The notes under the pieces were generated by a model. The model saw only the letters and a program-made list of their open reading frames with translations, was not told the origin of the DNA and searched no databases. The position numbers and the translations under genes were made by a program. From a virus (taxonomy: Duplodnaviria > Heunggongvirae > Uroviricota > Caudoviricetes), in IMG/VR virus record IMGVR_UViG_2541047828_000009, positions 1-43,862 of that record: a DNA stretch of 43,862 bases; one strand, written 5' to 3'. Of the stretch, positions 42,917-43,254 are shown one piece after another (positions within the stretch are counted from its first letter, which is position 1; each line of letters begins with the position of its first letter).

Positions 42917-42936
42917 TACTGTATATAAAAACAGTA
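42917..42936. promoter_or_regulatory. LexA (SOS) box overlapping the promoter of the 99-aa gene
   Basis: taCTGTatataaaaACAGta, a perfect CTGT-N8-ACAG palindrome; TTGATC 17 nt upstream; ATG 18 nt downstream. Confidence 0.8.
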
Positions 42937-42954
42937 TTTATCGGAGGGCAGATC

Positions 42955-43254
42955 ATGCTTAGACAGTCAGACATCGCCGCGGCTTTCCGCGAGTCCATTT
43001 TGCGCAGTTCCAAGGGGTTCCAGTACCTTCACACCCGCGACTTCGTTACTGCGCTGCGCCGGCGCGGCATCCATTTTTCCGAGGTGGAGGCGAACTCCTG
43101 GATCGCACGCGAGCAAACGTATTTCGTCGACAAAACGGCAGAGCATAGTGAAAACCGCCTGTGGATGATGGCCAACATGGGGAGGGTTCTGAGGAGTTAT
43201 CTTGCGATGCGCTATAGGTTTGCCCCATCCCTCCCAAACCAACCTTTTTTATAA
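42955..43254 (+). CDS. SOS-controlled small protein (99 aa), candidate antirepressor
   Basis: GGAGGG RBS; LexA box in its promoter; function inferred from context only. Confidence 0.5.
   Translation: MLRQSDIAAAFRESILRSSKGFQYLHTRDFVTALRRRGIHFSEVEANSWIAREQTYFVDKTAEHSENRLWMMANMGRVLRSYLAMRYRFAPSLPNQPFL

Follow-up and report, generated by a model that had tools for sequence, protein, structure and literature searches.

A LexA-box gene at the tail end of an Escherichia coli prophage is probably an SOS accessory gene, with a gfoA-like gene downstream of dinI as the likely antirepressor

Introduction

Which gene induces a prophage whose repressor seems too short for autocleavage, and what is the task of a small gene that sits behind a LexA (SOS) box at the tail end of the same prophage? 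These questions are raised by a 43,862-nt stretch of Caudoviricetes DNA (IMG/VR record IMGVR_UViG_2541047828_000009, positions 1 to 43,862; hereafter the window), which is 100% identical to part of Escherichia coli 20KM2222 (NZ_CP151050.1). Within it, the LexA box TACTGTATATAAAAACAGTA, read from the sequence at 42917-42936, precedes a 99-aa open reading frame (ORF99) that the source-genome annotation lists as 'hypothetical protein.' A sequence-only reading of the window had taken ORF99 for a candidate antirepressor. We herein argue that ORF99 is likely to be a LexA-box SOS accessory gene and not the inducer, and that induction would instead proceed through a dinI-ORF82 module, in which ORF82 corresponds to GfoA, acting on a repressor of the GfoR type.

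The precedent for such a circuit comes from the Gifsy prophages, in which gfoA, located just downstream of dinI and co-transcribed with it under LexA control from the dinI promoter, is indispensable for induction (PMC3121763; PMC5322425, Owen et al.).

Results

The repressor and the dinI-ORF82 module resemble the Gifsy system

The prophage repressor (Table 1) possesses HTH_3 as its only Pfam domain; Peptidase_S24 was not found in the 128-aa protein by Pfam, and no S24 domain was found anywhere in the window by tblastn with nine S24 protein queries, LexA and lambda CI among them. Both searches bear out the earlier supposition that this repressor is too short for S24 autocleavage. From end to end, the protein shows homology to Gifsy-2 GtgR (27% identity across 119 aa, E 2e-8) and likewise matches the DicA subfamily (E 1.7e-8). 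It shares 74% identity with the phage mEp237 repressor, the C-terminal halves being almost identical; the record of the mEp237 repressor notes its similarity to a regulator of Salmonella Typhimurium 14028S. At the DNA level, the gfoR primers gave no match to the window's repressor.

Between 12500 and 13771, a LexA box, dinI, the GTG-start gene ORF82 and an irsA-like gene follow one another in the order of the Gifsy dinI-gfoA-irsA layout, and ORF82 is also syntenic with the middle gene of Gifsy-2 dinI-gftA-STM1020. The comparison with gfoA was limited to its primer-annealing ends, as given by the Table 2 primers of Lemire et al. 2011 (PMC3121763). Primer pp866 maps to 12893-12909 (16 of 17 bases) at one end of ORF82 and pp867 to 13098-13119 (19 of 22 bases) at the other, both in the correct orientation and frame, and the encoded ends read MSNSALQ versus VSDSALQ and VTPPSDI versus VTPPSDN (gfoA primers versus ORF82). 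A Salmonella protein 90% identical to ORF82 starts with MSNSALQ, exactly as pp866 encodes. Moreover, primers pp864 and pp865 identify GftA as Gifsy-2 STM1020.1n, and the ORF82 family profile showed a colinear hhalign match to GftA (E 1.5e-4, 51 columns). Phage mEp237 carries dinI, a 97.6% identical ORF82, an STM1020-like gene and a like repressor, and no homologue of ORF99 or its family, phrog_3893, was found in it. Since the primer match, the Gifsy synteny and the GfoR/GtgR/DicA-type repressor all point in one direction, we consider ORF82 to be a gfoA orthologue and likely the LexA-controlled antirepressor of this prophage, a role assigned to it by orthology. The ORF82 model consists of four strands and a C-terminal helix, a fold that differs from that of ORF99, and the two genes are situated 30 kb apart.

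The spacer between dinI and ORF82 is better kept than the proteins that flank it (relative to Gifsy-2, DinI is 66% and the antirepressor 25% identical), and a terminator-like hairpin lies within it at 12775-12793; the spacer may be a conserved leader or a regulatory RNA element.

A conserved LexA box precedes ORF99

The full motif TACTGT-N8-ACAGTA, with at most one mismatch allowed, occurs at two sites in the 43.9-kb window, 12500 and 42917, against 0.03 expected from shuffled sequences, and none of 100 shuffles reached two sites. Since the box at 42917 is also kept upstream of diverged homologues and in most of the related IMG/VR loci described below, it is far beyond chance, and we predict from this conserved box that ORF99 is under LexA control. 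The looser core CTGT-N8-ACAG was found four times in the window, against 0.38 expected; the sites at 4204 and 7858, located within coding regions and without TA flanks, were rejected as LexA boxes and ascribed to chance.

The gap between the end of the box at 42936 and the ORF99 ATG at 42955 amounts to exactly 18 nt. The predicted promoter, TTGATC-17-TACTGT, agrees with the consensus in 7 of 12 positions and was not called by a consensus promoter scan of the window. The same hexamers at the same spacing are present at the HK140, HK225, Eeyore and LAU1 homologues, and the layout with the -10 inside the LexA box is repeated at the window's dinI promoter. Hence, the sequence-only reading described this locus largely correctly: the coordinates and the shuffle statistics agree with its SOS box 18 nt upstream of a 99-aa gene, and its placement of ORF99 at the tail end of the prophage is confirmed by the order ORF99, pin and host yciI-tonB in the source genome. 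The overlap of the box with a promoter -10 that it had also proposed is plausible, the layout being that of the phage 186 p95 promoter, but the modest consensus agreement and the silent promoter scan leave this point less secure.

Directly upstream of the ORF99 -35 region, a terminator-like hairpin (ATAGCCATGGGCTAT, 42878-42892) with a weak T-tract was observed, which could shield ORF99 from late-operon read-through.

ORF99 belongs to a family of small, predicted winged-helix proteins

Residues 1-79 of ORF99 match positions 1-79 of the 79-position family phrog_3893 (E 1.7e-39), the members of which are usually 79 aa long. The family comprises 73 clusters at 50% identity, all of them from Enterobacterales (Escherichia, Klebsiella, Enterobacter, Citrobacter, Raoultella, Erwinia and their phages). 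In a profile search of 5.8 billion proteins, its members were named either 'hypothetical protein' or, by mistaken transfer, 'DNA polymerase V' and 'invertase,' names wrongly carried over from neighboring genes. ORF99 had no match in Pfam, NCBIfam, PADLOC or a PDB sequence profile search, and our literature searches found no paper on phrog_3893.

The ORF99 core is predicted to form a winged helix with the topology H1-b1-H2-H3-b2-b3. The most conserved residues of the family (A46, N47, W49 and I50) fall in the third helix, usually the recognition helix, and the core contains 12 basic and 9 acidic residues. The C-terminal tail, of which 20 residues are outside the phrog_3893 family, is predicted to be disordered (predicted local distance difference test, pLDDT, <50). 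Structure searches with the ORF99 model gave no support for a specific relationship of its winged helix to LexA.

Comparison with known antirepressors, the check that the sequence-only reading had itself named, was negative by BLASTP, hhalign and fold. No BLASTP alignment of ORF99 to GfoA, GftA or Rem was obtained; hhalign of the phrog_3893 family gave probabilities of 0.2-1.5% against GftA, Rem and the ORF82 family and of at most 0.25% against Tum, ORF99 having no DinI domain. Structure searches retrieved no solved antirepressor, and a BFVD match labelled AntA/AntB was non-significant (E 0.09). By position, too, ORF99 was rejected as a Gifsy-type antirepressor, as it does not lie in the dinI-irsA slot, which is held by ORF82. 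As it resembles none of GfoA, GftA, Rem and Tum in sequence, profile or fold, ORF99 was probably the wrong gene to single out as candidate antirepressor. The mechanism that had been proposed with it, induction by a LexA-derepressed antirepressor, fits the short, S24-less, Gifsy-type repressor well, but the gene that suits this mechanism is ORF82.

phrog_3893 genes are paired with genes for UmuD'-like proteins

In a census of IMG/VR made with single-protein queries, we collected 160 related loci, 80 of the HK140 type and 80 of the Klebsiella type, and in 151 of them the phrog_3893 gene is directly followed by a gene for a UmuD'-like protein. Among the HK140-type loci, 73 present a divergent dinI, a LexA box at about -41, a 79-aa gene and the UmuD'-like gene, and four more possess the UmuD'-like gene without dinI or a detected box. 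The Klebsiella-type proteins are 90-99% identical to ORF99 aa 1-79; 78 of these 80 loci continue with a 105-aa UmuD'-like gene, with no divergent dinI. A LexA box (CTG-N10-CAG core) was detected in 77 of the 80 HK140-type and 68 of the 80 Klebsiella-type loci, the commonest variant in the latter being the exact box sequence of the window. The box is likewise kept, between -31 and -43 relative to the start codon, upstream of all the diverged homologues that were read, those of Eeyore, HK225, HK140, Erwinia phage Midgardsormr38 and Enterobacter phage LAU1 (38-62% protein identity).

In lambdoid prophages, the phrog_3893-UmuD'-like operon sits at the right end and is often back-to-back with dinI, and the two genes overlap by their stop and start codons in HK140, LAU1, Midgardsormr38, Ec-U7 and ECONIH4. 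UmuD cleaves itself between Cys24 and Gly25, with Ser60 as the catalytic serine. The UmuD'-like proteins, which fall into two size classes of about 129 and about 105 aa, begin with a start Met followed by Gly25 and align with E. coli K-12 UmuD from that residue onward; Ser60 is replaced by Thr or deleted, and the ~105-aa class also lacks Lys97 and has no Pfam match. Because they start at Gly25 and have Ser60 changed or deleted, their sequences mark these partners as pre-processed UmuD' analogues, like N15 gp26.

We also examined the repressors of four other phrog_3893-carrying phages. Those of HK225 (phi80 type, 257 aa), HK140 (HK620 type, 238 aa), Klebsiella phage ST13-OXA48phi12.5 (229 aa) and the ECONIH4 prophage ('LexA family protein,' 219 aa) all combine a helix-turn-helix (HTH) domain with Peptidase_S24. 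In the four phages examined, phrog_3893 does not track short S24-less repressors.

These observations bear on the possibility that ORF99 is after all a LexA-derepressed antirepressor, acting on its cognate repressor or in trans on co-resident prophages, either alone or redundantly with the GfoA orthologue. Its small size and its position behind a strong, conserved LexA box would suit such a role, as would a window repressor without S24 and the frequent divergence of phrog_3893 genes from dinI, as antirepressors tend to be. Moreover, antirepressor families are diverse and unrelated (GfoA, Tum, AntC; PMC3121763), and FsoA of Fels-1 acts in trans from a phage with a cleavable repressor (PMC3121763). 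However, a gfoA orthologue with a LexA box of its own already occupies the canonical position, ORF99 shows neither homology nor fold similarity to tested antirepressors, and members of its family are coupled with a UmuD'-like gene at the great majority of loci. In addition, nearly identical phrog_3893 genes stand alongside phi80-type, HK620-type and other S24 repressors, and mEp237, with the same repressor class, does without ORF99. We regard an antirepressor role of ORF99 as unlikely and retain ORF82 as the candidate for that function.

Chimeric origin of the ORF99 copy and its pin neighbor

In the window, the gene next to ORF99 is not the UmuD'-like one; the pin invertase gene is there instead, the UmuD'-like partner having been swapped for it by recombination. 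The trace of this exchange runs through ORF99 itself. Its residues 1-79 share 96% identity with Klebsiella phage homologues, and the core differs from a Klebsiella phage homologue by 8 synonymous versus 3 non-synonymous codons, so that it looks to be under purifying selection. A per-30-nt profile against HK225 gave 47-63% identity for nt 1-210 of ORF99 and 100% for nt 241-300, and an HK225 identity of 99.7% starts at ~43174, inside the gene. Because the identity to HK225 switches within ORF99, the gene is a chimera: its Klebsiella-type core gives way at about codon 73 to an HK225-type end, and the last ~26 codons derive from HK225-like DNA. The 99-aa form, with this same tail, is also found in HK225, where the same invertase comes next. 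Both phi80 and mEp237 have dinI and pin at this locus and no phrog_3893 gene. Among 5426 complete E. coli genomes, the exact ORF99-pin arrangement of the window was encountered in one.

Neither a gix/hix-like core nor suitable inverted repeats for pin were found in the window, and the gene appears from its surroundings to be an orphan without an invertible segment. The hairpin that buries its ribosome-binding site (Table 1) was discarded as a terminator, there being no T-run after it. Since the window scan revealed no terminator separating ORF99 and pin, pin may be co-transcribed with ORF99 during the SOS response.

It could be that ORF99 serves pin, either as the donor of an SOS promoter or as a small winged-helix protein that assists a site-specific recombinase, be it as accessory or as directionality factor; excisionases have a winged helix and a size like that of ORF99. 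Read-through from ORF99 would agree with this, as upstream translation or transcription could open the hairpin over the pin ribosome-binding site; the ORF99-pin order and tail are shared by HK225, some Klebsiella-type members are fusions with remnants of recombinases (P0052, P0082), and ORF99 adjoins attP/attR. All the same, pin is an exceptional neighbor in a family that has the UmuD'-like gene at this place in 151 of 160 loci, pin is present in phi80 and mEp237 although they have no phrog_3893 gene, no recombination sites for pin were detected in the window, and the conservation of the family is older than its fusion to the pin region. A function in the service of pin thus seems very improbable to us.

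Alternatively, the ORF99 copy of the window could be an inactive leftover, transcribed upon SOS induction without effect. Its UmuD'-like partner is missing, its C-terminus is chimeric with a tail predicted to be disordered, and its exact arrangement is as rare as stated above. Nevertheless, the 79-aa core is intact and closely resembles its Klebsiella phage homologues, from which it differs mostly by synonymous changes; the same intactness holds for promoter, LexA box and ribosome-binding site, plaque-forming phage HK225 carries the same 99-aa form, and the host supplies UmuD. We find it quite unlikely that ORF99 has decayed to this state, and prefer to see in it a working SOS accessory gene.

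Setting and mosaic structure of the prophage

ORF99 lies after the tail fibre genes and before pin and is the second-to-last gene of the prophage. Because host yciI-tonB is located directly beyond the last prophage gene, the prophage occupies the phi80 attachment site. A comparison of window positions 1-13800 with mEp237, HK225, phi80 and Gifsy-2 exposed a mosaic: the integrase, the attachment site and the replication genes are of the phi80 type (99% identical to phi80 and HK225), the immunity region with dinI-gfoA is of the mEp237/Gifsy type and RecE/RecT are of the Gifsy type; the tail-end region is of the Klebsiella-phage type. The coordinates of the features are collected in Table 1.

Two further loci were noted. 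Directly downstream of the repressor gene, a slot in which lysogeny-expressed exclusion or defence genes are usually placed, an AT-rich gene for 467 aa lies on the minus strand (7159-8562; phrog_5990, E 3e-178); it had no PADLOC or Pfam match. It contains one of the CTGT-N8-ACAG cores (7858-7873), which has no TA flanks and is probably there by chance. On the minus strand, the run of tail fibre genes contains an insertion (38239-39617) made up of an O-acetyltransferase-like gene (phrog_3333) and an open reading frame for 95 aa, probably a lysogenic-conversion moron for O-antigen modification.

Table 1. Positions of the regulatory elements and genes considered here, in window coordinates.
Feature	Coordinates	Strand	Remarks
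Prophage repressor, 128 aa, GfoR/GtgR/DicA type	8605..8991	-	no S24 domain
Cro-like regulator	9021..9314	+	divergent from repressor gene; Pfam YdaS_toxin, P22_Cro; phrog_35
Second LexA box TACTGTATAAAAACACAGTA	12500..12519	.	at dinI promoter, TTGATA-17-TACTGT
dinI homologue	12538..12771	+	alternative ATG at 12526; Pfam DinI E 4e-26; 66% identical to Gifsy-2 DinI
Conserved non-coding spacer, dinI to ORF82, 117 nt	12772..12888	+	96 identical bases versus the 111-nt Gifsy-2 spacer
ORF82, 82 aa, GTG start, gfoA orthologue, likely antirepressor	12889..13137	+	primers, synteny, profile match; phrog_340 (unknown function)
irsA/STM1020-like gene, 199 aa, NinB/Orf family	13172..13771	+	84% identical to Gifsy-2 STM1020; phrog_319
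-35-like hexamer TTGATC	42894..42899	+	17 nt before TACTGT
LexA box TACTGTATATAAAAACAGTA	42917..42936	.	first six bases (42917-42922) likely the -10
Ribosome-binding site GGAGGG	42943..42948	+	6 nt before ATG
ORF99, WP_021543322.1, 99 aa, phrog_3893 member	42955..43254	+	conserved core, predicted winged helix, aa 1-79 (42955-43191)
Recombination junction with C-terminal tail foreign to phrog_3893 (aa ~73-99)	43170..43254	+	identical to HK225 DNA
Hairpin, 8 bp, CTCCTGTT-ttcat-AACAGGAG	43285..43305	+	buries pin ribosome-binding site; fold z -4.2; IR3 in phi80
Pin/Gin-type DNA invertase (pin), phrog_125	43314..43862	+	Resolvase and HTH_7 domains

Discussion

We propose that DNA damage, through RecA-stimulated cleavage of LexA, would open two promoters of this prophage. 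The dinI promoter would yield DinI and the GfoA orthologue (12538..13137), and the latter, in the manner demonstrated for its Gifsy counterparts, would bind and inactivate the 128-aa GfoR-type repressor, leading to induction. The second promoter would produce the winged-helix protein ORF99 and probably also pin mRNA. The ancestral job of ORF99 would involve the UmuD'-like partner and would be dispensable for induction. From the company that the family keeps, we infer for ORF99 an accessory, DNA- or protein-binding SOS function exercised together with UmuD'-type proteins, in damage tolerance or in a modulation of the RecA/LexA type. The induction circuit itself is of the known Gifsy GfoR/GfoA type, and ORF99 is a member of a catalogued, uncharacterised family.

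Several points weigh against this interpretation. The link of ORF82 to GfoA and GftA is drawn from synteny, a weak profile match and, decisively, the published primers, the BLASTP comparison of ORF82 with GftA was not significant, and the ORF82 model reaches only moderate confidence (pLDDT 68). The accessory role of ORF99 is proposed from its gene neighborhood and predicted fold only. In HK225 and HK140, phrog_3893 shares its LexA box with the divergent dinI, and an association with dinI recurs among antirepressors, Tum being an antirepressor-DinI fusion and the Gifsy gene lying in dinI-gfoA. The repressor type was examined in a small sample, the four phages named above. Furthermore, by the FsoA precedent, co-occurrence with S24 repressors would be compatible with an antirepressor activity of ORF99.

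A more far-reaching idea is that phrog_3893 and its UmuD'-like partner constitute an undescribed two-protein LexA-box module that could act during the SOS response on S24-type repressors or on DNA polymerase V (Pol V)/RecA, for instance as a new class of trans-acting antirepressors or as an SOS modulator. The two genes resemble the halves of a LexA/CI/UmuDAb-type protein, one a winged helix for DNA binding and the other an S24 fold for dimerisation. Although we consider such a module unlikely, ORF99 of the window might, if it were true, act with host UmuD' or on neighboring prophages.

Our analysis assigns the antirepressor function to another gene than the one first suspected and places the LexA-governed Gifsy GfoR/GfoA circuit in an E. 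coli prophage at the phi80 site. Moreover, it draws attention to a small gene, predicted to encode a winged-helix protein and preceded by a conserved LexA box, that is present in hundreds of enterobacterial prophages, almost always together with a pre-processed UmuD'-like gene, and that has no recorded function. A function for this pair would add a component to the phage SOS toolkit of DinI, UmuD' and antirepressors, and could matter for mutagenesis and for cross-talk between prophages in Klebsiella and E. coli.

Among known systems, that of the Gifsy antirepressors GfoA/GfhA/GftA and repressors GfoR/GfhR/GtgR (Lemire, Figueroa-Bossi and Bossi 2011, PMC3121763) is the one present in the window, at the repressor and dinI-ORF82. 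ORF99 has only its small size and its LexA box in common with these antirepressors and differs from them in sequence, fold and location. Phage 186 Tum offers another parallel. In its p95 promoter, the -10 is annotated as TACTGT, forming the left arm of a LexA box, as at ORF99; both proteins are small and encoded behind an SOS promoter (a predicted one for ORF99), and both are associated with a DinI-like sequence. However, Tum consists of 146 aa and is a fusion of an antirepressor with DinI, and ORF99 is a predicted winged helix with no profile similarity to it.

Small stand-alone winged-helix regulators such as PefI and PapI are also among the systems nearest to ORF99. P1 HumD and plasmid impCAB are further examples of SOS accessory genes of phages and plasmids, and we know of no role described for a winged-helix partner in SOS genes of the N15, phiKO2, HumD or imp type. 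The niche of phrog_3893 is approached by N15 gp26 and by phiKO2 gp22/gp23 (DinI and UmuD-like), which follow the tail fibre genes and precede attP or the partition genes. In the annotations of HK225 and HK140, reference is made to phiKO2 gp22/gp23, and N15 gp26 aligns with the UmuD'-like proteins encoded downstream of phrog_3893 genes, but N15 differs in that its UmuD-like gene comes without the phrog_3893 gene.

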